Below are positions 39,505 to 59,801 of a DNA stretch of 64,000 bases, piece by piece. The translations under genes and the position numbers were made by a program. Below the pieces are notes generated by a model, which did not search any database, was not told where the DNA came from, and saw nothing but the letters and a program-made list of their open reading frames with translations. Where the stretch lies: positions 1,426,001 through 1,490,000 of the forward strand of contig AP026131.1 in the NCBI GenBank assembly GCA_030295235.1, in the 5' to 3' direction. Origin of the DNA: Fistulifera solaris. Taxonomy: Eukaryota. The first letter of the stretch is position 1; each line of letters starts with the position of its first letter.

Positions 39505-42500
39505 CTAAAAGGCACCCGCTTCCGCCATGTCCAAATCACCCGTCGACATGACATCGTAAATGCAAGATTCGCGCGTCTCTTCCGACCAGTCAGCGCAAGC
39601 CATCGCGGCATCTTCGAAGCTCACCAACGATTCCGACATGCGACGATTCATCAAGGCCAAAGGAGTGGGCATCTGGCACAACTGAGGATATTGCGGGCCT
39701 TCGACTTTCTGGAACAAGTTGCCGTCGGTGTCATGAACTTGCCAGCTCAATCCGAATTCATTGTGATCGGCGTGAACTTGACCGTTGCGTCCAATGAGAC
39801 TACCGTCCGTGAACGCACCCATAAGACCGACACTATCACCAAAGCCGTCACTGTGGGCGTTATCGACTTCGACGGCCAAGAACTCGTTGAAGACCTTGAT
39901 GACAATCACACCCATGTGTCCCAAATCAATCTCGAACTTGTGACGCTTGGTACCGAAGTGGGTCAAAGTCAGAGGGAATCCACCGACGGTGGCGGGCAAT
40001 TCGGCACCGGCAACACCGTTCAGGTAGTAGTAAGCACGAGTGCCGACTTCCAAAACATCATTGCCGATGCGAACCGCGGCATCCGAGATGAACGACCAGT
40101 CGTCACGGATCTTGGTGCGAATGTGCAAGTCGAGACCGGCTCCGTTGTGGAAGGTGGGAGTCTTGACCAACACCAAATCACAAGCACCGTGGAAATCGTA
40201 AACTTCTCCCATCCAAGTCTTCAAGTGAGGATCACCGTAACCACCGCCTGATTCGCCGTCGCCAATCGAGTTGGCCGTGGGGAAACCGACCGTAGGATCG
40301 TTATCAATCGTCGAGCCAGTGGGAGCAGCAACCGGGGTGGAGCTGACTTCGGTCGGCGATGCGACAGGTGTGTCTTCGGGAGTGCCTTCCGGAACGAGGC
40401 ATTCGGGGTAGTCCATGGAAGCACCGATGACCGTCGATGCGGTGTTGTTGAGCGAAATGCTGCCGGAGTAACCCCAGTCAGCGTGAATCTGAATGTTCTC
40501 TCCAGTGGCGCCCTCAGGGAGCTCGAAACAACCTTCCCATGTAATGACCTTGCCGTTGGGGTCGCGCGTGAGAGTGATTCCAGGAGCTAGGGGCTGAATG
40601 GCACTGTCCGAGCACGAGTAATCCTTGAACCAGGCCTCGGTGTTGCCAAGTTGAATTCCGGGAGCGGCTTGGACTTTGATGCACATCGCACCCGCCTTGC
40701 AATCGGCAAGGCAGTAAGCAGCGGCTGTTTCCACAAACTCAGGGGCTGTGGTGTCGTTCTTGCCGGCGTTGAAAATCTTGAAGCACTCCTTGTATTTCTC
40801 GGGTGTGGCAATGAGGTTGGAACTGGTAAAGTTGAGGACTGGTCGGACTTCGTTGCAATCCATGACACCATCTCCGTCCGAATCAATATCAAGCTCTTCG
40901 CATCCGCAAATTCCAGCATCAGTTTTGTCAGGGTTCAAAGGGCATTCGTCCTCACAGTCATAAACGCCGTCTCCGTCTGTGTCGACGTCGGTGGTCTTGG
41001 AGGGGTCCATGGGACATTTATCATTACAGTCAGGTGTTCCATCATTGTCCGAATCCGTGTCTTGAACATCGCATCCGCATACCCCAGGTTCGATCTTGTA
41101 AACGTCGTCAACACACAAATCATTGCAGTCAGGCGTTCCATCGCTGTCCGTATCCGTCTCCGGCTCGCCGCATCCGCATAGTCCTTCCTCTGTCGTCTTC
41201 TCGGGATCGTTGGGGCAAACATCATCGCAATCGAGAACTCCGTCCGAATCACTATCCACATCCGGCGAACCGCAACCGCATGTTCCTGGTTCTGTTTTGT
41301 CAGCGTCTTCAGGGCACTTGTCATTACAGTCGGGGACTCCGTCGTTGTCTTTATCATTATCCGGTGTGCCACATCCACACGCCCCAGGAGCGATCTTCGA
41401 AGGGTCGCTTGGACAATCATCATCACAATCAGGGGTTCCGTCGCTGTCAGAATCCGTGTCTGCTACGTTGCAACCACAGACGCCTAGATCGTTCTTTGTG
41501 GGATCATTGGGGCAGGAATCTTCATGGTCGCATTTTCCATCAGCGTCGGCGTCCGCATCAACCATGCCGCACCCACATTTGCCTGGGTCGGTCTTCTTGG
41601 GGTCCGCAGGGCACTTGTCGTTGCAATCAGCCGTTCCGTCATTGTCCGCGTCCACATCCGTCTTGCCACAGCCGCACTGCCCTGGGGTAATCTTTCCTTG
41701 ATCAACAGGGCACTTGTCGTTACAGTCAGGAACACCATCTCCATCTGAATCAACGTCTGATGTTCCACAGCCACATTCCCCTGGCGTAATCTTGTTGGGA
41801 TCGGCGGGGCATGTATCCAAACAGTCTGGCGTACCATCACCGTCCGTGTCCGTTTCCATTTGGCCACAACCGCACTTTTCTGGGCAGGTTTTTACAGGAT
41901 CGTTAGGGCACCTGTCCTGGCAATCCACTGTTCCATCACCGTCCGAGTCTTTTTCAGATTGACCGCATCCACAAATTCCTGGAACGATCTTGCTAGCATC
42001 TTGAGGACACTGATCAACGCAGTCAGGGGTTCCATCTTTGTCAGAATCGACATCCGAAAATCCACAGCCGCACACCCCTGGGGCGATCTTTTTAGGATCA
42101 TCAACGCAATCATCGTCGCAATCCATGGTGCCATCCTTGTCCGAATCCTTGTCTGGCTCTCCACAACCACACACCCCTGGAGCAACCTTGGTCTTGTCGA
42201 TGGGGCATGCATCTATGCAATCCGGTGTTCCGTCAAGGTCAGAATCTGTTTCACTCACACCGCAACCACACTTGCCCTTCTTGTTCTTGTTGGGATCCAA
42301 CGGGCACTGGTCGTTGGCATCACATGTTCCATCGTTGTCCGAATCTTGCTTGCCACATCCACAGAGGCCTGGCTCAATCTTCGTAGGATCATCTTGACAG
42401 GCGTCTTTGCAGTCAGGGGTTCCATCTTTGTCGCTATCAACATCACTGACTCCGCAACCGCACACGCCTGGTTTCGTCTTGAGAGGATCGCGCGGGCATT

Positions 42501-44078
42501 CGTCTTTGCAGTCGGCCGTTCCGTCCAAGTCCGAATCTCTGTCTGAAACACCGCATCCACAAATGCCAGGCGTAATTTTGAGGTTGTCCGAAGGACATCC
42601 ATCTTTGCAGTCAGGTGTTCCGTCCGTGTCTGAATCTCGATCCGGAACTCCACATCCGCACTGCCCGGGAGTAAGTTTGGTTCGATCTCGAGGGCATCCA
42701 TCCTTACAGTCAGGCGTTCCGTCGCCGTCCGAATCCACCTCTGAAGCTCCGCATCCGCAATGTCCTGCGCATGTTGTCTTGTTTCTATCGTTGGGGCATA
42801 CATCCAAACAGTCAGGCAAACCGTCACCGTCCGTATCCGTTTCCGGTCGGCCACAACCACAGCGTCCGGCACTTGTAGTCTTGAGGGGATCGTTGGGGCA
42901 GACATCAAAACAGTCCAAAGTTCCATCGCGATCCGTATCAATGTCTTGGCGTCCACAACCACATCTAGGACACGCTACCAACTGAGCAGCACATCCCGTT
43001 TGCAATTGAGCTTCGGTGGCAGCACAAGTGCAGCCCTTGAGACCGCTGGTAGTGGAAACGAATCGGTTGTTGGGGCAAACATCGCAAAAGTCGGGCACAC
43101 CGTCTCTGTCAGTGTCAATCTTGTCGTCGCCTCCAGCGCATCTGTCACATCCATCAGGGATGCCGTCTCTGTCGGCGTCCATTCTGTCATTGTGTCCAGG
43201 GCAACGGTCAACACAATCCGCAACACCATCACGGTCCGTATCTGTATCCGGGACTCCGCAACCGCACTGCCCTGGCTCCATCTTGTTGGGATCCAAAGGA
43301 CACTTGTCGTTGGGATGAACACCGCAGCATTCGCCTTTGGTCCAGTCACAGCACATTTTGCCATTCAACTTTGTGGAGCGGACGTAAGGGCACGCACGTT
43401 CCCAGTAGGACCAGTAAGCTTTCTCCTGGGACCAATTCCACGTCGGGTTTCTGGCCTTGACATCGTAGCGAGTGCCGTGGTCTCTGATCAAATAATCTTT
43501 CGTGTTAGGACCCCAGGGAGAATAATCGCTTCTCTTGCAGTCGACCAACACATCATGTTCACGCATGTGCCCTCCGCCAGTTCCTTTCGGACCGTACCAG
43601 GCGCTCGAATCAATGGTGATGCGCACCCATGGGTTGGTTGGCGAACAAGTGCGATGACAGATGGTCACACGACGAGAGCCGCATTTGCTGCTGCCATCTG
43701 GATCGGCAAGTCCATAACTGTCTTCTGGGTTGCAAATTCCTGTAAATATAGCGCCATCTGAGCCGTTGTCGTTGAGTTCCGAGCACACTAGCCCGGAAGC
43801 GCACGCCATGCCCTTGACACTTGTATACTTGTCGGCATTCGTGTTGTAAGTAACTTGACAAGATTGACCTTGAGTTCTCGCGGGAGCGCAACCGGAAAAG
43901 CTCTTTGTACTGGAATTTCGGAGAAAGCGCGGCGTCACCTGTGATGAAAAAGGAAAAGCACTGTCAGGATTCACGGTTCGCGTGCAAATGTTTTTTTTCA
44001 AAGGCTCGCACTTACCTGAGCATCTGCAACAGAGTTGAGGAGAGCCGCAGCGAACAGCAAATTGCTGATGAATTTCAT
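39505..44078 (-). CDS. Large secreted protein with ~22 thrombospondin-type-3-like Asp/Cys repeats and a C-terminal GDPH/VWD-like domain
   Basis: Exon 1 44078-44016 encodes the signal peptide MKFISNLLFAAALLNSVADAQ; GT-AG intron to 43939. Repeat unit DxDxDGxxDCxDxCPxDPxKxxPGxCGCG. C-terminal GDPHLKTWMGEVYDFHGACDLVL. Confidence 0.9.
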
Positions 44079-46102: not shown

Positions 46103-49100
46103 CTAGAAAACCCCCAAAGCCGTCCGGGCACCTCCCTTTTCCAAGAGCTGAATGACGGCTCGTTTCTTGTCCTCTGACATTTCCACATCTTCTAAGGACT
46201 TCAGCAGTACGGCAACTTCTTTTTCTTTTTCTAAGTATTGAAACAAAATCTTCGCCAACTTTTCTTTGGGTAGTGACATAATGAAAGTCGTTCCTTCCTT
46301 GTACACCATTTTCGCGGCTAAAGCAGAGCTAATCGCATTTTTAATGTATTGCTTCGGGACTCTATCGTGCACTCGATCAAAGGCTAGATCAGCAATCGTC
46401 TTTGGTAAATGCATTTGAAACAGAGGCAAAAGAGCTTCCTGATCTGCTTCCGACAAAGAATCCAACGCAAGAGTCAGCGCATCGGTGGCCGCATTGATAC
46501 AGTTACTAATGACCTGAGAAATTTCGGGAAGCGAACCTCCGTGTGCCTCATATTCACGAAACAGAAGCTCCGCTTCCAGTTTGGCCAGCATGCGCAGCTT
46601 TTCCAACACTTCTTGCACAATTTGAGCCTTGTTGGCAACAAATTCTTCTTCCGACAACAGCATGGCAGCACAAATCTCGTACGACGATGTTATCACACCG
46701 CCCTTGTTGGCCGATGAATCTTTGACAATAACGACGCCGGCATCTTGAAAGAGCGAATTTCTGGCGTCTTTTGTGATGAAAAGATTGGCTCCTTCCACAA
46801 TGAGCGGTGCTGACGGACGTCCATCTGCCATAATAAAGTTCTTGTAATTGGAGCAATCAATCGTATTCGGACGTCCTCCGCATGGCAGGAATGCATCTGC
46901 TTGAAGTCGATTGTGCATCGTGTTGCGTGCTTTGGTTCCTTCAGGAGTGTCCGTTGTGTGCAATTTGCCCGACGGTCCGAGCTTAGTCGCGTCGAAATAG
47001 GAAATGCAAAGTGCCGAACTGACTAGTCGCAACAGCTCGTCGTGGTTCAGTCCATCCGGATCTTCTGCGCAACCGGAGTGGTCCGCAATGCCGACAATCT
47101 TAACATTTTCACCATATTCACGAACCAAAATTTTGATTTCATTGCCCGCAACATCTCCATCCGGACCGCCCGTCATCTTTACAGTGAAAGAGTTCTTTTC
47201 TGGATCGATTCCCAGCACGCGGCGAAGTGCGGTATCTAGATACACATTGACGCCTTCGCTTGTTACACCGAATTGTTTGTGATTGATCCCCGCCCTCGGC
47301 TTGCTGCTCATAAAAGCAGCTGGTGTGTTGTACCCTCGCTCCGAGGCTCGCTTCACAATCCATTCAATGTCCCCCGGAATGATCTGCTCGTCCGGACCCA
47401 AATAAAGAACTTCTGGTCGGCCTAAGCGATCAATAACAAACCTTTTGGTCTCCTCGGTTTCTACGATAAGATCCAAAATGGTATCAGTGAATGCTTTGAC
47501 CGATTTACGCATCACAAAGTATTTGCCAGAATCGTTCAATCCTGTTGTATTGATCAGCGCAACGGCTTTGGAACCTCCCTCGGGGCTGAGTTGGAAAAGC
47601 GTGGTTAGGATATTGCTACAACAATAAGTAAAAACTAGGATTTCGTACTTACATATCTTTGTTTTTTAGTTGTTGCGCAAATGCCAACCCATAGCATTCG
47701 TCGTATTGCCGAGCTGATTCCAGAGCATACAATTCCGTGTTGGCGGGTGTCACCAATCGCAGTCCTCCTCGACTGATATCACGGAATCGTACGTGAAAGC
47801 CGTTAAAACGACGACCGTGAACGAATAATACTCCAAACGGCAATTCAGCAGCATTTCCCGGTTCATGCATGACGGAAGGATCAAGCCGAAGACCCAATGC
47901 GTAACGATTTGGCATGTAGGCGTTCGTTTTTAGAGTGCGATCCACAATTTCAAGCATTTTGCTCAAAATCGAGGTAGCTACCTGATCCTCTACTTCCTTG
48001 GAAATCATTTGCGTCAGATCATCACGTCTACTTTGATACGATTCGCCACTCAAAGGATGATCCGGATGAAATCGATCGAGAAACAGGTCAGCAATCAATG
48101 CTGCATGGCCGATGTGTTGATGCACAACTTCGGCAATATTCGCTTTCGAATACGCCATCGTATTAATCTTGGTCAACACTGGATGGATCAAGGAGCACAT
48201 GGCCGTAATCACTTCTCCACGCGCAATTCCCAACCAAGGCTCTTTGCCAAACACCAAATCGACTGTATCCGGGTCCAACCATTTTGCGCGTTTAAGTTCT
48301 TGCGCCAATGTTTGCCAATCCGTCGTGGCATCGGCCGACAACAACGAGGTGGGGCTGATCAACGTCCGCAAAATCGTTACACTCCCGTTTTCACCATCCG
48401 GCACAATATCCAAACGTGCCCGCTGCACATCAAACTTGTGATGGTACAGCAACTGACACAGATTCTCCAATGCGACTTGCGGAATACTGTTCGCGACCGC
48501 CATTTCGACCCAATACAGCGGTCCACTCGTTGGTAAATGCATTTCGGGCGTTTGATCGGTCGCCAACCCAATGTGTACCGCCACTCCTTCGGTCCCCGAG
48601 ACTTCCGCAAACAACAACCGCTGCATACAAAATCGCGCCGGATTCATAAGACCAATTTGCACGTATGTCGGCCGACACATTTTCATGTATTCGACCAGCG
48701 ATTCTCTTTCCAATAAAGGCGACAACGGCAATTCTTCATCTACCACAATCCCCTGCTGCACATTGGCCGCATACTCTAAAATTGGTTCCGCCAAGGCCAT
48801 GACGTCCATGTCGACATCTTCATCGTGTACGGGTCGATGCCCGTACACAAACATATTCAAGCTCATCGTTTCATCCACGGTCGAAAAGACGTGCAATCGA
48901 CTGAGGGGCATTTCGAGACTGTACTTGTACGGCAATTCTTGCACCATGTGCAACAGCGTACCGGGAGCGGTGCCGGGACGAATGAACGTCAAGACGGTAC
49001 GACCATCGAGCGTATGCGATTTGAGATTGAGATAGAGGTCCATATTCGCATCCTTGACGGCCGCAATTGCTTTCATGTGATCCATGCGGTATCTTTCGGG

Positions 49101-50482: not shown

Positions 50483-51355
50483 ACAACGCTCATCTCGACG
50501 AGCTTTATTTTCCTTCATTCTATGATTGTCATCAAAAGGTTAACAATTGTTTGTTTATTCTATCGTCGGTCCAACTCCACAAAGGACTTTTTTCGGCGTA
50601 GCCCGCTGCGCCCTTTGGATTCGCATTGCAACAAATCCGCCGACCACAATGCAAGAAAAATGAAAAAAAAACCTTCTTTTTTTTGTACATTCACGAGACG
50701 GCAACTTTTCTTGACACTTTCTCTCGTTCCAGCAACACTCCTCTGTATGGAAGAAACAACCCTTTCCGGCTCCATAGTGATGCAAGAATTATCATAAGTT
50801 CAGGCACTGCGCCAATGAAAAGAGGATCTCGCCTTGGTATTTCATTCCTTTTTCCGGGTAGACGCACAAGGACGCACATGAATGAACCACGGGTTTGAAG
50901 GATGAGAAGTCGATGCTGAGAACATGTCAAAGAGCACAATGGATGCTATCCGACAAACAGAGCGTATCAACGTTTACGCCCCCACCTAGCGGATAATGGG
51001 CAACCGAGACGACAAAGTCTTCTGTTCGACAAAGAAGAAGTAGCAACAGTTCGAATGGTATCCGCAATGACGACGACGAAAAGACACAAATTGTCGAGCT
51101 TCGACCGCGGGAAGAGAGACTTTGCAAACAACGATATTTGGACCTGTGATATTGAGGTGCTATAAGAAGATTGCGTGCCTGCATGAAATTCCCTACGATA
51201 CCCTTAGACCAACACGCTACTATCACTATGTGGACGTCGAATATACTACGGAGTATTTTAGCTACAATCAACCGAGTTCAATGGAGTGAATTTACAGGAA
51301 TGATTTTTCAGGAAGTTTCTTGTTCTGTTGGAACTCCATCAAAATCTCTTACAAC

Positions 51356-51795: not shown

Positions 51796-52311
51796 CGTGA
51801 TGAAACGTGTTTGTTGTAGCGTTGTTATTTTCGAAGGCTGTTGGGTCAAAGGTCCAAGCGAAGAAGTCATCAAATCATTGTTCATCGGAAGAGGGGGAAG
51901 ATACTGTATCTTTTGTTAGAGACTGAAGCACACGCAGAAGGGCGTCTGGCGTCTGACCGCATAGGCACGTCCCATTTCTTCAAAACCGCTCCGATTCGTT
52001 CATGTTCTTCATAATCCAGTACGATTTCTACATACGTGACGTCTCCGTAGGATGATGTAACCTTACCAGTTCCGCATGGCGCGCCTCCGAATTCGGAAAA
52101 TGGCGGAGCGCTTCGTTTTTCAAAGAACAAAAATCGCAACAATTCTGATTTCTCATTGTCACGAAAGGAAGGAATCACTTACTTTATGCTTCGCGTTGTC
52201 TTTCTCCCATTCTTTTTCATTGATAAGCTTTAACTGCAATTGAATTGACTGCAAAGTTCCTTCAAAAGCCCCTCTTTTGCCGTACCTACAAAAAAGAAAG
52301 AAGCTATCATC

Positions 52312-54189
52312 ATGACACGTTCGATGGTCGTTGTTTCGGATCATTTTCATTTCAGTCATTTTACCTGGAAGGCTTCCCCGCAGGATTCGGAAGAAGAGAC
52401 GACATCGACACCTTTGAAGTTGTCGTCTCCGCCACCGCAAGACATTAAATTGAAACTGTATTCGCGCATTCTTCATGATGACGAAAACAACATTCATTTC
52501 GGAAAATGGGATCGTGTTTCGCTGGAAGAGAAAGATGCGTATTCACAAGCGGCGCATCGCATGACTGACTATATGTACAACGATTTGGCCATACAACTGA
52601 TTCCGGAACATCGTCGTAATGCCAGCGACTTTCAATACATTGATTTGGGGAGCGGGACAGGAGCGAGTGCCTTGCGAATTGCTTCCCAATGTACGTTTCC
52701 GGGCAAGGTTGTGTGTTTGAATGTATGTCCGCAACAGAACCGCATTGCGCAACGCGCGGTCGCACAAGCCAACTTACAACAAACGATTCAAATTATGGAA
52801 GGCGATTTTGAGCAAATGCCGTTTGCCGAGAATGCCTTTGATGTGGCCTTTTCGCAAGATGCCTTCATTCATGCGCGCCGCAAACTGCAAGCCTTTCGAG
52901 AAGCCTTTCGTGTTGTCCGACCTGCGGGTGCCTTTGTCTTTTGCGATGTCATGGCGGGACCCATGACGACGGACGAACAAGTCGAACAACTCTCCAGAGA
53001 CAATGCCATTTCGAATTTGATGCGTCCGCACGAAACAGTCCAAGCGATGCAAGAAGCGGGTTGGAAGGACGTCCACTCGATCAATGTCACGAACGATATG
53101 CGGATTAGTTTTCAACTCATGCTACAAAAAGTGCACGCGAGCTTGGAGACGCATCAACAGGATCGCGATTTGTTAGAGTTGTACCGTCAGCAGATTCAGA
53201 CGCGCATTGATCAAATTGATCGTGGTATCATTCAGTGGTGTGTGTTTCACGGTCGCAAGCCCGTCGTACTGCAAATGTTGTGTCGACCGCCTTTTCCCTT
53301 GGTGAATACTTCGGAATTGATTGTGGTAAAAGAACAAGACAACGACCCGACGTCACAAGATCCGTCCATTGTGGTGGTGGACATTTTGACGCCCATGCCC
53401 CGCGCGAAAGTTGAAGCTTTGCCTTCTTCGGTGTCATTGTTGATTACCATGAGTGCCGGACTTGATCACATTGACATGGCAGCGTGTCACGAACGCAATA
53501 TTACAGTGCAACAGGCCGGTCGTCGCGCCATTACATCCCACGTCGCCCAATACGGATTGGCGTTGATTGTGTTGGGATTGCGGGATGCTTTGTCGCAACA
53601 ACAGGTTCCGTTTCCATCACAGGGATGGAATTTGACGTGGAATATTCCGGGAAAGCCTCTCGAGGAATCGAAGATTGCATTGATTGGTATGGGAACGATT
53701 GCGAAAGAATTGGTGCGTCAAATTCGTTGTTTGGCTCCCACCGCCGAAATTCTGTATCATGCCCGATCTCGTCATGAAACGGCGGAAGCCGAATATCATT
53801 TGCAATATTATGATGATTTGAAGGAAATGGCGTCCCATTGTGATATCTTAGTACCATTGTGTCCTTTGACCGATCAGACTCGCAATTTGATCAATGCCGA
53901 TGTGCTTTACCATTTACCGACGCACGCCGGATTGTTGAATCTGTCTCGCGGCGCCGTGGTCGATACGGAAGCTCTGACGCATGCTTTAGAAGCGAAGCAG
54001 TTTCGGTACGCCATTTTGGATACGACGGCTCCGGAACCTTTGCCGAAAGATCATCCCTTGTGGTCGTTGCCGAACTGTTTCATCTTTCCGCACTTTGCCA
54101 CCAACACTATGGCTGTTCGTCGTGCTTTGGTAGATGACATTCAGCCTTTAGTTGAAGAGTATTTTGGTCTGACATGCAGTGATGTGTGA
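52312..54189 (+). CDS. Bifunctional SAM-dependent methyltransferase (sarcosine/dimethylglycine MT-like) plus D-isomer-specific 2-hydroxyacid dehydrogenase
   Basis: Intact 625-aa ORF. MT motifs NNIHFG, YIDLGSGTG, GDFEQMPF, FSQDAFIH, RVVRPAG and IQWCVFHGRKP. 2-HADH motifs SAGLDHIDM, IGMGTIA, CPLTDQTRNLIN, NLSRG, DTTAPEP and PH. Confidence 0.92.
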   Translation: MTRSMVVVSDHFHFSHFTWKASPQDSEEETTSTPLKLSSPPPQDIKLKLYSRILHDDENNIHFGKWDRVSLEEKDAYSQAAHRMTDYMYNDLAIQLIPEHRRNASDFQYIDLGSGTGASALRIASQCTFPGKVVCLNVCPQQNRIAQRAVAQANLQQTIQIMEGDFEQMPFAENAFDVAFSQDAFIHARRKLQAFREAFRVVRPAGAFVFCDVMAGPMTTDEQVEQLSRDNAISNLMRPHETVQAMQEAGWKDVHSINVTNDMRISFQLMLQKVHASLETHQQDRDLLELYRQQIQTRIDQIDRGIIQWCVFHGRKPVVLQMLCRPPFPLVNTSELIVVKEQDNDPTSQDPSIVVVDILTPMPRAKVEALPSSVSLLITMSAGLDHIDMAACHERNITVQQAGRRAITSHVAQYGLALIVLGLRDALSQQQVPFPSQGWNLTWNIPGKPLEESKIALIGMGTIAKELVRQIRCLAPTAEILYHARSRHETAEAEYHLQYYDDLKEMASHCDILVPLCPLTDQTRNLINADVLYHLPTHAGLLNLSRGAVVDTEALTHALEAKQFRYAILDTTAPEPLPKDHPLWSLPNCFIFPHFATNTMAVRRALVDDIQPLVEEYFGLTCSDV

Positions 54190-54421
54190 GCCACTTTTTG
54201 GAAAATAGATAGCCCAATAGATAAGGGCACTGCATAAATCTCTTATAGACAAAAACATTACATGATGCTTGTTTCAGTTAAATCAGTTGTAACCTTACGT
54301 AGTATTCATTAGAGCGGCCTACGACCGCAAAGGAAACGCAAAAACTAATGATTTGATTGTATTTACTTTAGAAGGCGAGTTAATGGTTAACCATCCACAG
54401 AAATTACCACGGAATTGCTCG

Positions 54422-55260
54422 TCACGAACGGTGGGGTTCGAATGGAGAATCTTCGTTGCGCAAGAGGAAGGACTCTTTTGAAGTTATCGTGCGGAATCTG
54501 GCATCTAAATATTTGTGTTTCTGATAAGGAGTGTCTTTCTTTTTGTGTGTGCTGCGTTTAGGTACATACATCTTGCTTGGAGAAGTCTCTACATCGGTAG
54601 CCATCCAAACACCGGCGTATTGATCCCAAGAATACCCTTTCGGGGCTTTCCCCGGTGGCCGTGTCACAGTCCCGTCCTTGTTCAGCATAAGGAGGCGCTT
54701 GGATTTACGAAACATGGTGGGTGTAGTCTTTGCCAACTTTATTGAGGTCGGTCGTATTTTCCGATCCTTGTTGGACTTTCTCGTGTTCTTCTTTGTTTTC
54801 GGCAAGCTCTTTTTGTTGGCGGGTTCCTGTTCCGGCGAATGCAGCATCGCTAGTGAATCCATTTGTTGCAGAAGTTGCTTTGGAATGCCCGAGAACATCT
54901 TTTGAGTTCCTACCGATCTCGTAGTGGGACGTTGCAATTTCGGAGGAGACTTTCTTTTCGGCGTTGACACGCTCGGAGGTTTTCCTTTCGAAGAGCGTGC
55001 CTTTTTGGCTGGGTTGATCTTCCGTTTCGAAGGATTTGTCTTTTTTACTGGACTGCTCTTTCGCGGTGCTTTTCGCGGCATCTTGTACCATTCATTGTGA
55101 ATCGGATCCCAGGCATGGTCTTTCGGGGCACGTCCTTTGGGTTTAGGAAAAAGATGACATGCTCTTGATATCGTTGATGACCCACGCGCTTGCGGAGGAC
55201 GCGAGGACAACCTTTCTCATCTCCTGAATCACCAGCTGCAGCTTCTTTGTCTTTCATTGC
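54422..55260 (-). CDS. Lys/Arg-rich protein with two PxGxAPKxxxWD..W motifs; 5' structure uncertain
   Basis: ORF 54422..55210 contains PKGRAPKDHAWDPIHNEW and PPGKAPKGYSWDQYAGVW separated by basic low-complexity sequence. Confidence 0.55.
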
Positions 55261-55895: not shown

Positions 55896-57885
55896 TTACA
55901 TCAAAGCAAGAAGCCATAAGGCCACGGAAGCGCCAGTCGCGAGGCGGAACGAGTGACTACTCTCCTCGGTGGTTCCCTCGTCGACGACGGGCTGGCAGTC
56001 GGCCAAATCGGCAAAAGGAACCGTCTCACAGGGCGGCAATGGCGGGACCATCCAGAATCGTATTGACGATACCACCTTTGGGGCACGCTTTCTTGGTCGA
56101 AAAGTAACTGAAGGAACCCACGGCTCCACGAAGACACGGCGGTGCAAACGGAGGATCGACGGTCATGTAGTAACCGTAATTGCCCGCGCTGTCTTCCTTT
56201 CCATTGCATTCATCCAAATCGTACGGCGCATCAACTGTCCTTGATCATCGTGAAATACCGAAAATGGGGAAACCATCGCGCGCCCATCCAATGACCGGAC
56301 TGGCGGGGCCCGTCGCAGGGAACTGGTTGGGCATGTCGGCGTACTCACGAACCTGATCCCCATCTTTCCACCAGTCGGCACTTTCGGCAAATTCCATTCC
56401 GAGCGATTCCAAGAAGCATTTCGGAGGAAGGTGGTAATGATACTGGTGCTTCTTGTCCGAATGCCCATTGCAGCTGTCATAACTCCAAGTCGGCTTGTGA
56501 CTATCGAGCAAAATGCCGTTGGTCATGACACCCACCACATCGTCATCTTTCAAGTAAGTTGGTTCGCCCGGAGTGCCTGGTTCGGAAGGAATGACCATGG
56601 TGTAATGCTGATACATCGGATCATAGGTACCATGTGATTCAGTGTGACAGGCGCCACATCCCCCGCACGATGCACCACAACCGCCACATCCCCCACAGCC
56701 ACCACATCCCCCACAGCCGCCACATCCACCCGCGCAGCATCCAGTCGAGTTGGAACCGCATCCGGCCGCACAGCATCCAGCACCACATCCGTCAGTCGCA
56801 TTGGCACCGCAAGAAGCATCGCAGCCCTGCAAGAACCGGTTCGCACTGGCCGCGTCGCATCCAGCCGAACAAGAGCCACAGCCCGCATCGCATCCAGCCC
56901 CGCATCCCGCCGAGCAAGAGCCACATCCGGCGTCGCATCCAGCCCCGCATCCCGCCGAGCAAGATCCACAACCAGCGTCGCATCCGGCACCAGAGCAAGC
57001 TCCACAGCCAGCGTCGCAACCAGCCGAGCAGGATCCACAGCCCGCCGAGCAAGATCCGCATCCGGCCGAGCAGGATCCACAGCCCGCCGAGCAAGATCCG
57101 CATCCAGCACCACATCCCGCCGAGCAAGATCCGCAACTTGCGCCGCAAGATCCACATCCGCCACCACATCCAGCGCCACAGGCTCCACACGAGCCGCAAG
57201 CCCCACATCCACCTTCACTGCTGGATTCATTTTGACCCGGAATCACGAAATCACCTTGCGGGTTCGCGACCGTTCCGGTGCTTCCTTGCATATTCGTATG
57301 ATCGGGACACCCGTTGCTTTCAATCACCATCGAATCGGCTTGCACGGTCACCACAACATCGGAACGGAAACAATAGTTGTTCGCTTCGAGATTGGGTTGC
57401 GTCGCATCTTCACAAACCACTTGATGCGTCGGTGCTCCTTGATAGTAAGAATCGTCCCAAGTATCTTGAATCGTTGCCTCAAACGCCAACGGATATCCGG
57501 CATCACTGGTTTCCGCGAGCGCTTCATCGTATTGTACCACAACTTTCGGAAACGGACCCGCCGTTTGACTTTCGATATACTGTACAGTCGTCGCTTGCGA
57601 TGCATTGCCGGCCAATTCGAGCAAAATGGAATGAATACCGTCACTATCGGGCGTTTCACTCAACAAGACGTATCCCGATTCGACACATTTAGGCAACAAT
57701 TTGCACCAGCCCGTGTGCAGTTGCGGAGTATAAAAGACGTTGATGCCATCGGGGGCACACGGGGCCGTCGGAGATGCACCCGTACACAACGCAATGCATT
57801 GCTTGTCAATCAAATAGCCCGACAACTCGGCGGCGAGTGTCGTAGAAAACAAGAGAACGCTCAAGAAGATCGATTTCATCATCAT
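55896..57885 (-). CDS. Secreted, probably GPI-anchored YHYH-domain protein with a ~190-aa Cys/Gly-rich insert; frameshifts near 56250 and 56035
   Basis: Signal peptide. YHYH-family motifs [44 protein letters not shown] and YGYYMT..PF..CLRG. Hydrophobic C-terminus. Confidence 0.85.
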
Positions 57886-59801
57886 GTTTTTGCGAGATTT
57901 GTGTGTTGTCAAAGGAAATCAAATAATCAAATCAATCGTTTCAAAATTGGTCAATGATCAATCGTGTCAAAAAATGAGATAGCCGTCGAATGCTGCTCGA
58001 GCTCATCCTCCGAAAGCGAATCTTTCACTGAATCATCCTCATGGTCGTCATAAAGATTGAAAATGGGCTCGAGCAGTTTTGGAGGATGTCGCGATGATTG
58101 CCTTGCGGAAAAGGAAGGAGGCTGACGAAAGCGTGCGTCCTAAAGAGGTGCGTCTGTGGATGTCATTTTGTACTTAGAAAAAAAAAAGGAGATTTATGCA
58201 GAGCTTGTCCGTTGCATAAATTCTCAACAGAAAAGATACTACGTACGCGGTACGCGAGGCCCATTCATTCGCGAGAGAAGTTGAGTCACGAGAGAGTTGC
58301 GCCGACAAAGAAAACAAGGATGAGTGAGGAGTCGATAAAGAACAACAACAGCAACAACAACAGCAACACTGTAGTCTAGTTTCATTCGAAGTGAAGGATG
58401 GCACCATCGCTAACAACGCAGCATCAATTTATGGAATGATATAAAAATGTTGCAGTCGACCAGAGACGTCGCTTGGAAGAGATCGGCTTCGTCATTCATT
58501 CAATCCATGAACGGGCCTCCGGTTTGCGACTCGAAGGAATGCTCCAGTATTTTTGCACCATTTACTCTTCTATTATTTGTCATAATCCTTCGAATGAGAA
58601 CGTCAGCTTGTGTTTCCAATTGTATCTTTTATTTCGATACAACACGGCGGCTTGAGGGCAGGTGCGGACGGCAGTCGTTTTGACGTCAGATCAAACGGAA
58701 GATTACATCCATCGCAGGATCGTAGCGAAGGATGAACATTATTGTGGATGTGACTGAAGACTGCCTTGAGAGCTTTTACGGCACATGCGATTGAGTCATT
58801 TTGGAAGTAATCAGTGCAAAGAAATGGATCCAAGCGAAAAAAACGTCGTTTCGTAGAACGAAGCACACAACCGTCACTCGATGCGCCCCGCTATCGACTT
58901 TCAAAAAGAATGATCGCTGCATTTGACGGCTATCTGAAACGGCAAATCATTTTTAGTGACGACTTTGGTTTTCGAAGGAGAAATGGAATTTGAGAGACGC
59001 TAGCAATCACTCTTGGAAGACTCGCAGCTGCTATCCATTACGCGGCAATTATCACATCTTAGCTTCATTCGAATGGAAGTGGACCGTATGAGTCAAGTCA
59101 TCGCGAAGAATCAGACATATTCTCCCACCGCCGTTTGCAGTTGGACGTTATCGCCCAAAACGAGTCGCTCCGGACAGCGAACCTCACAAGGTCCGCAGCA
59201 AAACAGCGTCTCGTGGCGTTCGGAAAGCGAAAATGGAGAAGTATATCGTTCAATGGGGATGTGTCAAAGAAGAATGAAGGATGATAATGAAGAAGTTGCG
59301 AGGACGAAGACTTTTCGATCGGCATAAAAATAAAATGGCGAAAACACGAAACACGAAACACGAAAGTGAAAACAGTGAAATTTGTCGTAGCGTTGACCGT
59401 TCAAAGTTTACTACCGCTGTAGTGGCTTTTGCTCTAGTATTGCAATAGGCTTAGAGTGTAGTAACACCTAACACTTACATAAACTCAAGCCTCGATCCAC
59501 ATTACTCCGTATTTATTTTTCAAAAATGCCTCCACCCTTCACCCTCACCTTCTCATGCAACTCCTTGCAATAATGGGAGTAAGAAAGGAAAGCTAGAAAG
59601 CTTATTTGTGACAGAGAATCGACAAAGGCATCTTTCAAGAATCAAGAAAGAAGATAATGTTGGAATTCACTTCCGGCTCGGAGCGACCTGCGGTGTTAAA
59701 CTTGTAGATCAATTAAGCTCCGAGCTTGTTAGTGAATAGGTAGATCAATAGTCTCTTTCTTGTCTCTTCTTAGTCTTAATTTTTACTGTCTACTGGATTC
59801 A

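Follow-up and report, generated by a model that had tools for sequence, protein, structure and literature searches.

Whether two consecutive steps of dimethylsulfoniopropionate (DMSP) synthesis can reside in one protein is the question raised by a gene of the diatom Fistulifera solaris. The window analyzed, a stretch of 64,000 nucleotides of contig AP026131.1 (assembly GCA_030295235.1, positions 1,426,001 to 1,490,000), includes an open reading frame (ORF) of 625 codons that joins an S-adenosylmethionine (SAM)-dependent methyltransferase to a D-2-hydroxyacid dehydrogenase (2HADH). Billions of tonnes of DMSP are produced annually, and dimethylsulfide (DMS) derives mainly from it. In the transamination route, methionine is converted to 4-methylthio-2-oxobutyrate (MTOB), D-4-methylthio-2-hydroxybutyrate (D-MTHB), 4-dimethylsulfonio-2-hydroxybutyrate (DMSHB) and finally DMSP. 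To our knowledge, the genes assigned to this route are limited to the S-methyltransferase (DsyB/DSYB, TpMMT, DsyG/DSYE) and one bacterial decarboxylase (DsyD). The initial annotation of the window, made from the sequence alone, had proposed that the fused protein is an MTOB reductase and an MTHB S-methyltransferase. We retain this proposal tentatively, as a reading that falls somewhat short of probable. It was strengthened by three independent lines of evidence: the position of the methyltransferase in the clade of TpMMT, the additional fusion partners found in its relatives, and the conserved adjacency of fused and TpMMT-type genes in other diatoms.

The methyltransferase half matched Pfam Methyltransf_11 at residues 111-210 (E 4.5e-19, 69 bits against a cut-off of 21), and the motifs quoted in the initial annotation were all found in the translation where it had placed them (IHFG at residues 61-64, SQDAFIH at 181-187, NLSRG at 543-547, APEP at 573-576 and FPH at 592-594, in addition to those listed in Table 1). 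The same annotation had described this half as a methyltransferase of the sarcosine/dimethylglycine type (SDMT). The description holds for the fold, the best solved relative being the SDMT structure 2o57 (only E 2e-17), but not for membership, since the score with the SDMT model NF041675 was 72 bits, where membership requires 550. When 1.84 billion cluster representatives were searched exhaustively with phmmer, 19 clusters (50% identity) had E <= 1e-30, followed by a broad tail of methyltransferases of about 285 amino acids that are 25-32% identical. The close relatives were of two kinds, the methyltransferase domains of fused proteins and single-domain diatom methyltransferases of about 303-340 amino acids that are 40-47% identical. 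The latter include Thalassiosira pseudonana XP_002291473.1/EED91580.1 (P0255; 41% identity over 243 amino acids, E 8e-69), with a fuller 334-amino acid model in the same cluster (P0288); this protein, TpMT2, is presumably the TpMMT of Kageyama et al. 2018. As 'TpMT2', XP_002291473 has served as a query for DMSP synthesis genes (PMC11347835).

A phylogeny was inferred with IQ-TREE (LG+C20+F+G4, 303 columns) from 56 methyltransferase domains chosen from about 450 proteins. The rows comprised 22 fused proteins, 14 TpMMT-type single-domain proteins, the Gynuella DsyGD protein, two fusions of a methyltransferase with a PanE-type domain, three large fragments and 14 of the best-scoring phmmer matches of about 280-420 amino acids, redundant diatom sequences being omitted. 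One clade of 38 rows (support 100/100, stem 1.3) held the 22 fused proteins, the 14 singles including P0288, and P0071 and P0072, which are fragments of fused proteins. Its basal branches are all fused: P0296, with the methyltransferase-2HADH layout, the Chromera protein, and the four-domain proteins described below. The fused diatom proteins form a clade of their own (15 rows, 100/100), with the diatom singles, including that of T. pseudonana, beside or around it, and the starred branches of the tree force at least three changes of the label 'fused'. DsyGD and the PanE-type fusions fell in a neighboring, weakly supported group (85/57) outside the TpMMT clade. The phylogeny suggested at the outset as a check on the proposal groups the window methyltransferase with XP_002291473 (100/100) and not with SDMT, so that, taking a shared well-supported clade as the yardstick, the domain is of the TpMMT type. 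The one characterized enzyme of the clade, TpMMT, sits among fused forms. In the simplest reading, with a root that consists of one outgroup row, the single-domain TpMMT-type genes would derive from the methyltransferase part of a fused gene. A search of genome contigs with the methyltransferase alignment yielded 20 pattern matches, none of which was confirmed, and no prokaryotic locus.

The C-terminal half is a complete 2HADH. It matched PF02826 (2-Hacid_dh_C) with E 4.1e-41 and 140.7 bits against a gathering threshold of 25.1, and part of the 2-Hacid_dh catalytic model at residues 349-451 (27.6 bits against 24.6). An AlphaFold2 (AF2) model built on a 16-row alignment had a mean pLDDT of 81.7 and a pTM of 0.77, and Foldseek placed its C-terminal half on whole 2HADH chains, with TM scores, normalized to the target chain, of 0.72 for GRHPR (2h1s; 322 columns, 321-residue chain) and 0.79 for Pyrococcus horikoshii phosphoglycerate dehydrogenase (PGDH). 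By sequence, the closest solved relatives were human GRHPR (E 3e-29), Thermus glycerate dehydrogenase/glyoxylate reductase and formate dehydrogenases. Aligned to GRHPR with HMMER, NLSRG fell on NISRG (Arg), PEP matched (Glu) and FPH fell on LPH (His). The Arg-Glu-His triad, reported as intact in the initial annotation, was thus recovered as R546, E575 and H594. None of these residues varies among the 16 fused proteins aligned, nor do D570 and the motif residues G459, G461 and A464 (GxGxxA). The Pfam score, the triad, the GxGxxG/A motif and the two-lobed fold are those of the D-isomer-specific 2HADH superfamily. Past strand beta-2, ILYHARSRHE aligned ungapped on FLYTGRQPRPE of GRHPR, with no acidic residue and with Arg485 on the Arg of TGRQPR. 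Human GRHPR prefers NADPH; the fused reductase would probably use NADPH as well, in agreement with the cofactor fingerprint noted earlier.

The substrate of the reductase could not be read from homology, because every NCBIfam equivalog cut-off was missed (formate dehydrogenase, FDH, NF005750, 117 against 329 bits; GhrB, NF011938, 98 against 492) and no close stand-alone relatives were found among the 108 homologues of the fused protein collected at E <= 1e-3, the next full-length matches being PGDH-like proteins that are 25-27% identical. P0057, a possible fragment, consists of the reductase alone (402 amino acids, 55% identical where the two proteins overlap). Diatom fused proteins also share a motif at the N-terminus, with the consensus (I/V)xVSDxFHFSxxYW, in which D10, F12, H13 and S15 are nearly invariant among the 16 fused proteins; it was found neither in the single-domain TpMMT-type methyltransferases nor in Chromera P0056. 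The AF2 model has two strands at this motif, with low pLDDT, and the motif might dock on the reductase lobe.

The ORF listing, Pfam and tblastn agreed on a single uninterrupted ORF with two domains, as first described. Since five full-length relatives each aligned by tblastn as one collinear match (52315..54183), the gene has no intron. Contigs at the locus were present in four public runs (X1-X4), none of them recorded as RNA; X2-X4 were considered RNA-like from their coverage pattern, a label that is a guess. The X1 contigs covered all of the 5.5 kb examined, as expected of DNA, and those of X2-X4 were confined to 52275..54267 around the fusion gene. In X2, a contig of 2018 nucleotides (52275-54267) holds the entire ORF and continues into a loose end of 23 adenines; the genome at this junction reads GCTTGTTT, and the sequence past 54267 is not A-rich. 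X3 contributed a contig at 52281-54241 and X4 three contigs spanning 52292-54221. The start codon at 52312 is the earliest ATG of the RNA-like contigs. The mRNA consists of a 5' leader of about 37 nucleotides, the ORF, a 3' untranslated region of about 78 nucleotides and a non-templated poly(A) tail; because the tail begins 78 nucleotides past the stop codon, another exon on the 3' side is excluded. To judge by these contigs, the fusion gene is transcribed as one polyadenylated mRNA: a single contig spans both domains, which disposes of the pair of separate genes that the initial annotation had named as the outcome fatal to its reading. The fusion is also far beyond chance, given the 108 homologues and a best full-length non-self match that is 79% identical. 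Two contig ends are recorded here as observations in their own right. The X3 contig extends 242 nucleotides beyond 54241 into sequence unmatched anywhere in the window, possibly a chimera or a distant exon, and an X1 contig has a loose end at 51232, suspected to be a DNA mate-pair artefact, which resembles what we take to be a loxP-type circularization linker.

Fusion partners were counted by our own tally of the table of 108 homologues. The layout of methyltransferase, 2HADH and a class II aldolase domain (PF00596), in that order, was present in 40 of the 108, mostly proteins of 840-940 amino acids; the methyltransferase accompanied PF02826 without PF00596 in another 13, a number that may include truncated models. 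Other combinations were 2HADH with aldolase (P0055) and methyltransferase with aldolase (P0073, a cluster that includes Chromera Cvel_6440). The search for the same architecture in other genomes, proposed at the outset, found the fusion in Chromera as well as in both centric and pennate diatoms. In the tri-domain protein P0011, the third domain (residues 637-866) matched PF00596 with E 4e-35, and its best NCBIfam model was the uncharacterized PRK07044 subfamily. The PDB matches came in the order adducin (1e-22), a protein of unknown function (3ocr), two entries named 'Aldolase', NovR (9ryg, 1e-13), Mlr6791 (1e-12) and TqaM (6e-12), all ahead of the sugar-phosphate aldolases. Judged by these matches, the third domain of the relatives is a class II aldolase of the adducin/NovR-like branch. 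The HxH...H pattern is kept (IIHLHTPA ... NHG), and we take it to be equivalent to the zinc ligands of FucA. MtnB of methionine salvage was considered as a counterpart of this domain and rejected, as the match was of about 30 residues, with 31-33 bits against cut-offs of 137-226. CloR and NovR are O2-dependent, 3xHis non-heme-iron enzymes that convert an alpha-keto acid into an alpha-hydroxy acid (mandelate) and then into the acid minus one carbon (PMC13111500), and TqaM is a NovR/CloR-like oxidative decarboxylase (PMC12006828). The conversion of a 2-hydroxy acid into the acid minus CO2 by CloR is the chemistry by which DMSHB becomes DMSP.

A fourth partner was found in P0295, P0297, P0298 and P0306 (1131-1234 amino acids, environmental eukaryotes), which carry a domain of about 330-430 amino acids ahead of methyltransferase, 2HADH and aldolase. 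These N-terminal domains are mutually homologous (blastp 3e-51 to 7e-10). That of P0295 matched Rhodococcus phenylalanine dehydrogenase (E 2.6e-21) as well as leucine and tryptophan dehydrogenases, with both active-site lysines aligned, and by this likeness it is a Phe/Leu-dehydrogenase-type domain, presumably for the step from amino acid to 2-oxo acid. The predicted partners, an amino acid dehydrogenase, a D-2-oxo-acid reductase and a candidate decarboxylase, fit one to one, with the methyltransferase, onto the sequence from methionine through MTOB, D-MTHB and DMSHB to DMSP. The initial annotation had presented the fusion as a possible Rosetta stone for the missing reductase; this idea gained from the partners of the relatives, which fit other steps, but the two-domain form is secondary rather than primitive. 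Enlarged to the whole family, it would make these proteins a Rosetta stone of the entire transamination-type pathway, with a methionine-deaminating dehydrogenase instead of an aminotransferase, an MTOB reductase, an MTHB S-methyltransferase and a DMSHB oxidative decarboxylase, TpMMT being a split-off copy of the methyltransferase and the window protein making DMSHB. We regard that larger scheme as possible but doubtful.

The tri-domain gene immediately adjoins a TpMMT-type gene in five diatoms (Table 1), and the two lie on one contig in Cyclotella atomus (ACHAWO_005201 and 005208) and in Skeletonema marinoi (a 1.07-Mb contig). In six further pairs the two genes come from contigs of equal length. 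Adjacency of paralogues could arise from plain tandem duplication; that it has been kept in both centric and pennate diatoms suggests common regulation. A paper on S. marinoi reports that the TpMMT homologue alone falls at low salinity, a preprint on C. cryptica found no differential expression of the DMSP methyltransferase under acute stress, and the multi-domain gene is unnamed in the main texts of both.

The proposed mechanism is that of a cytosol-type single chain with two enzymes. The C-terminal 2HADH would reduce MTOB, the 2-oxo acid of methionine, to D-MTHB, with NADPH as the probable cofactor, and the N-terminal TpMMT paralogue would take the committed step of the transamination route, the SAM-dependent S-methylation of MTHB to DMSHB. 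In most relatives, DMSP would then be formed from DMSHB by oxidative decarboxylation in a NovR/CloR-like domain of aldolase fold at the C-terminus, and in some of them the Phe/Leu-dehydrogenase-type domain at the N-terminus would supply MTOB from methionine. The product in the window lineage would be DMSHB, to be finished by another enzyme or accumulated. The scheme is comparative throughout: substrates, cofactor preference and the roles of the partners are all predictions from relatives.

Several points weigh against this assignment. Our confidence was restrained because analogous predictions have failed, because diatoms keep a separate TpMMT, and because the window copy is truncated and fast-evolving. 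Among those predictions, a predicted MTOB reductase encoded next to dsyGD in Gynuella was inactive, as were single-domain homologues of DsyD, and a Porphyra protein joining a DsyG-like domain to an aspartate decarboxylase, as well as a DsyG-like protein of Planctomycetales, lacked MTHB S-methyltransferase (MSM) and DMSHB decarboxylase (DDC) activity (Wang 2024, PMC11306096). The diatoms with the tri-domain gene retain a TpMMT-type methyltransferase that would be redundant unless substrates or regulation differ, and no TpMMT-type neighbor of the window gene was found by tblastn within the 64 kb. A survey in mLife took a single domain and an identity of at least 70% as its working criterion for TpMMT (mLife 2022, PMC10989797); the window protein has two domains and 41% identity. 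The reductase, far below every equivalog cut-off, gives no substrate by homology. The third domain has been lost from the window protein, which forms a long branch (a path of about 1.09 from the shared node, against about 0.41 for P0011), and the substitutions at conserved sites include D235N and D258N in the methyltransferase and D488H in the reductase. What speaks for the initial annotation is the TpMMT clade, the GRHPR-like loop of NADPH type and the pathway-like fusion partners; what had to be corrected is the picture of the window protein, a truncated and rapidly evolving derivative whose proposed function is a prediction by homology.

The alternative that survives best follows the same logic with another substrate. 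A different 2-oxo acid, likewise derived from an amino acid, would be reduced to its D-2-hydroxy acid and then methylated on N, S, Se or O, giving another onium compound, methylated osmolyte or metabolite, for instance a nitrogen analogue of DMSHB and DMSP. We consider this unlikely, although by no means negligible. Apart from DMSP synthesis, we know of no pathway in which these four chemistries come together; the nearest characterized enzyme, inside the same 100/100 clade, is an MTHB S-methyltransferase; and the Phe/Leu-dehydrogenase-type entry domain implies a neutral or hydrophobic amino acid, of which, on chemical grounds that we infer, methionine alone is readily methylated to an onium compound. 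Nonetheless, the wider methyltransferase superfamily includes N-, O-, S- and As-methyltransferases, the window domain deviates at 11 of the 62 family-conserved positions, and a separate TpMMT-type methyltransferase kept beside the tri-domain gene suggests that the two are not redundant. As the reductase substrate is not given by homology, this half of the protein would accommodate the alternative as well.

The history of the window lineage bears on a second alternative, that of a relaxed or decaying copy which, having lost its last domain and its TpMMT neighbor, has also lost or changed the function of at least one remaining domain. The window protein, P0003 (79% identical), P0004, P0006 and P0005 form a clade with support 100/99 within the tri-domain diatom proteins. 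P0005 and P0006 stop about 45 residues into the aldolase domain, where truncation of the gene model or contig is possible, and in the alignment P0004, P0003 and the window protein have no aldolase residues. The window ORF stops directly after ...GLTCSDV, and no aldolase remnant was matched in the whole 64 kb by tblastn (E <= 10). Because the clade is nested among tri-domain proteins and P0005 and P0006 keep a stump of the aldolase, the two-domain layout is best explained, by this comparison, as a secondary loss from a three-domain protein and not as the primitive state; lacking the C-terminal PF00596, the window protein belongs with the tri-domain family by descent, as a truncated variant. Of the 62 methyltransferase positions with a conservation of 90% or more among the other 31 members of the clade, it retains 51, the lowest number among the 36 family members compared; most members retain 60-62 (P0296 has 54). 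Its reductase keeps 109 of 122 conserved positions, against 118-122 in 10 of the 11 tri-domain proteins and 84 in that of Chromera. Such faster evolution fits either adaptation to life without the third domain or relaxed constraint. This second alternative is nevertheless improbable, given that the 625-codon ORF is intact, transcribed and polyadenylated, that every catalytic and cofactor-motif residue is retained and the substitutions are mainly conservative, and that the 79%-identical orthologue shares the two-domain layout, which argues for selection.

A third alternative is a route from aromatic 2-oxo acids, in which a reductase like hydroxyphenylpyruvate reductase (HPPR) would be combined, in the relatives, with a decarboxylase of aryl-lactate or mandelate and the methyltransferase would act on the product, leading to hydroxybenzoate, arylacetate or quinone precursors. 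The substrates of NovR and CloR are aromatic, but the CloR path from arylpyruvate needs no reduction to lactate, and NovR does not stand out by PDB E-value from the rest of its branch. Likewise, a weak Pfam match to UbiE/COQ5 (E 1.7e-8) is outweighed by the position of the methyltransferase within the TpMMT clade rather than in the UbiE/COQ5 or O-methyltransferase families. With the Coleus hydroxyphenylpyruvate reductase among the structure and sequence matches, and phenylalanine dehydrogenase as the best PDB match of the N-terminal domain of the four-domain relatives, this route is quite improbable rather than baseless. Finally, an accidental fusion of a photorespiratory glyoxylate/hydroxypyruvate reductase to a methyltransferase, to which the database names of relatives ('Glyoxylate/hydroxypyruvate reductase B', 'formate dehydrogenase') and GRHPR as best solved relative might point, is very improbable in view of the conservation of the fusion across Chromera and the centric and pennate diatoms, its recurrence with pathway-like partners, the low GhrB and FDH scores, and next full-length reductase relatives that are PGDH-like and distant.

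The features of the fused gene and the gene pairs of other diatoms are collected in Table 1.

Table 1. Features of the fusion gene of F. solaris (window coordinates) and adjacent pairs of TpMMT-type and tri-domain genes in other diatoms.
Feature	Position	Strand	Details and basis
Fusion coding sequence	52312..54189	+	625 amino acids, single exon, ATG to TGA; ORF listing and translation
mRNA extent	52275..54267	+	RNA-like contigs; ends approximate
N-terminal motif of fused family (VVVSDHFHFSHF)	52327..52362	+	residues 6-17; 16-protein alignment
TpMMT-clade class I SAM-dependent methyltransferase domain	52423..53268	+	residues 38-319; Pfam, tree
SAM-binding motif I, DLGSGTG	52642..52662	+	residues 111-117; D, G, G invariant
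D-2-hydroxyacid dehydrogenase module, complete, two-lobed	53269..54171	+	residues 320-620; Pfam, Foldseek
NAD(P)-binding domain PF02826	53620..54099	+	residues 437-596; Pfam
Dinucleotide-binding motif GMGTIA (GxGxxA)	53686..53703	+	residues 459-464
End of strand beta-2, YHARSR	53755..53772	+	residues 482-487; alignment to GRHPR
Catalytic Arg546 (NLSRG)	53947..53949	+	invariant 16/16
Catalytic Glu575 (APEP)	54034..54036	+	alignment
Catalytic His594 (FPH)	54091..54093	+	alignment
Seminavis robusta pair	Sro178_g078210 r:65115-66038, g078220 f:67736-70588		divergent
Cyclotella cryptica pair	CCRYP_009897, 009898		adjacent
Thalassiosira sp. AJA248-18 pair	ACHAXR_013457, 013456		adjacent
Bacillariaceae metagenome-assembled genome pair	SGBAC_008525, 008526		adjacent
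Cylindrotheca fusiformis pair	scaffold6350 genes.4,.5		adjacent

The neighbors of the fusion gene in the window carry no pathway-related Pfam domains. Divergent from it, and about 3.2 kb apart, are two adjacent ORFs of 478 amino acids on the reverse strand (46103-49085) with matches to ELFV_dehydrog (E 8e-32) and Bac_GDH_CD, which are probably one large gene of the NAD-dependent glutamate dehydrogenase (NAD-GDH) type split by an intron or a frameshift. A link between these ORFs and the dehydrogenase of the four-domain relatives was rejected as coincidence, since tblastn with the N-termini of the latter gave no match in the window (E <= 1). Three further reverse-strand ORFs were recorded. That at 54422-55210, downstream of the fusion gene, encodes 262 residues rich in Lys, Pro and Ser, has no Pfam match, is uncovered by X2-X4 and may not be a gene. 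The 555-amino acid ORF at 56245-57912 has a signal-like start, a long repeat of Cys, Gly, Ser and Ala (CGSCSAGCG...) and, at the C-terminus, a YHYH domain (E 8e-11); its local GC content of 0.548 is the maximum of the window, and RNA-like coverage begins at about 55800. The ORF at 39505-44001 (1498 amino acids, GC 0.53-0.54) showed faint TSP3 and mucin-like Pfam matches alone.

The family is already in print. 'TpMMT-like proteins' of Thalassiosira oceanica (EJK59074) and F. solaris (GAX25165), with methyltransferase domains less than 50% identical to TpMMT, were reported to 'contain extra protein domains' whose 'function is unknown' and were omitted from that analysis, the domains being unnamed in the accessible part of the paper (mLife 2022, PMC10989797). 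TpMMT and DSYE are described elsewhere as single-domain enzymes, and knowledge of the decarboxylase step 'is still lacking' (Wang 2024, PMC11306096). Full-text literature searches, with subscription journals outside their scope, found no paper that ties the methyltransferase-2HADH architecture to DMSP. Papers that pair DMSP with a class II aldolase concern, by their titles and the openings of their abstracts, methionine salvage and Arctic bacterial genomes. The assertion that no gene is assigned to the MTOB reductase agrees with these searches and with a June 2026 review, which in the portion available lists only methyltransferases and DsyGD and no reductase. The fused family offers clonable reductase candidates, and the relatives of the window protein add candidate decarboxylases and, unexpectedly, candidate dehydrogenases for the entry step. 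If the DMSP assignment is true, the marker genes for DMSP in 'omics studies would be roughly doubled, the widespread TpMMT-like multi-domain proteins of diatoms would be explained, and a compact cassette to engineer DMSP or DMSHB synthesis would be at hand. If it is refuted, the family would point to an unknown diatom metabolite derived by methylation from a 2-hydroxy acid.

Known systems resemble the window protein in different parts. SDMT (2o57, NF041675) matches its methyltransferase in fold and in the N-terminal helix motif but lies outside the TpMMT clade, and is the source of misleading automatic names. GRHPR and GhrB share with the reductase the 2HADH fold (TM 0.72-0.79), the Arg-Glu-His triad, the GxGxxG/A motif and a cofactor loop without acidic residues; the identity is about 24%, the window reductase is fused to a methyltransferase, and the GhrB score is far from that required of a member. 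NovR/CloR and TqaM resemble the third domain of the relatives in the PF00596 fold, the PDB matches and the HxH...H pattern; however, adducin and proteins of unknown function outscore them, and the window protein is without the domain. Fusions of an SDMT-like methyltransferase to a PanE/ApbA ketopantoate-reductase-type domain, a non-homologous NADPH-dependent 2-oxo-acid reductase, were seen in P0320 and P0336; the closest Atlas cluster with this arrangement is a bacterial one that has no assigned function. They may represent a convergent pairing of reductase and methyltransferase, a weak parallel; as a close parallel they were rejected, falling outside the TpMMT clade and near DsyGD with weak support.

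TpMMT itself belongs to the same 100/100 clade, is 41% identical and shares the 'IHFGKWD' block near the N-terminus and the 'RISFQLML' block near the C-terminus of the domain. It keeps 62 of 62 clade-conserved positions, against 51 in the window methyltransferase, and is a single-domain protein of about 310-335 amino acids, to which the window protein adds a whole reductase and the N-terminal motif. The DsyGD protein of Gynuella sunshinyii (AJQ93410.1, held in the P0314 cluster) has PF08241 at 76-175 followed by PF04115, the layout published for DsyGD. It is bacterial or cyanobacterial, 28% identical to the window methyltransferase and outside the TpMMT clade, and its partner is the ureidoglycolate-lyase-like PF04115, for which Pfam gave no match in the window protein, rather than the 2HADH and class II aldolase of the fused family. 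The methyltransferase fold is nonetheless the same, and DsyGD, a validated fusion of MSM and DMSHB decarboxylase, is a precedent for joining consecutive steps of the DMSP route in one chain; the methyltransferase-aldolase protein Cvel_6440 of Chromera mirrors its layout with a partner of another fold.

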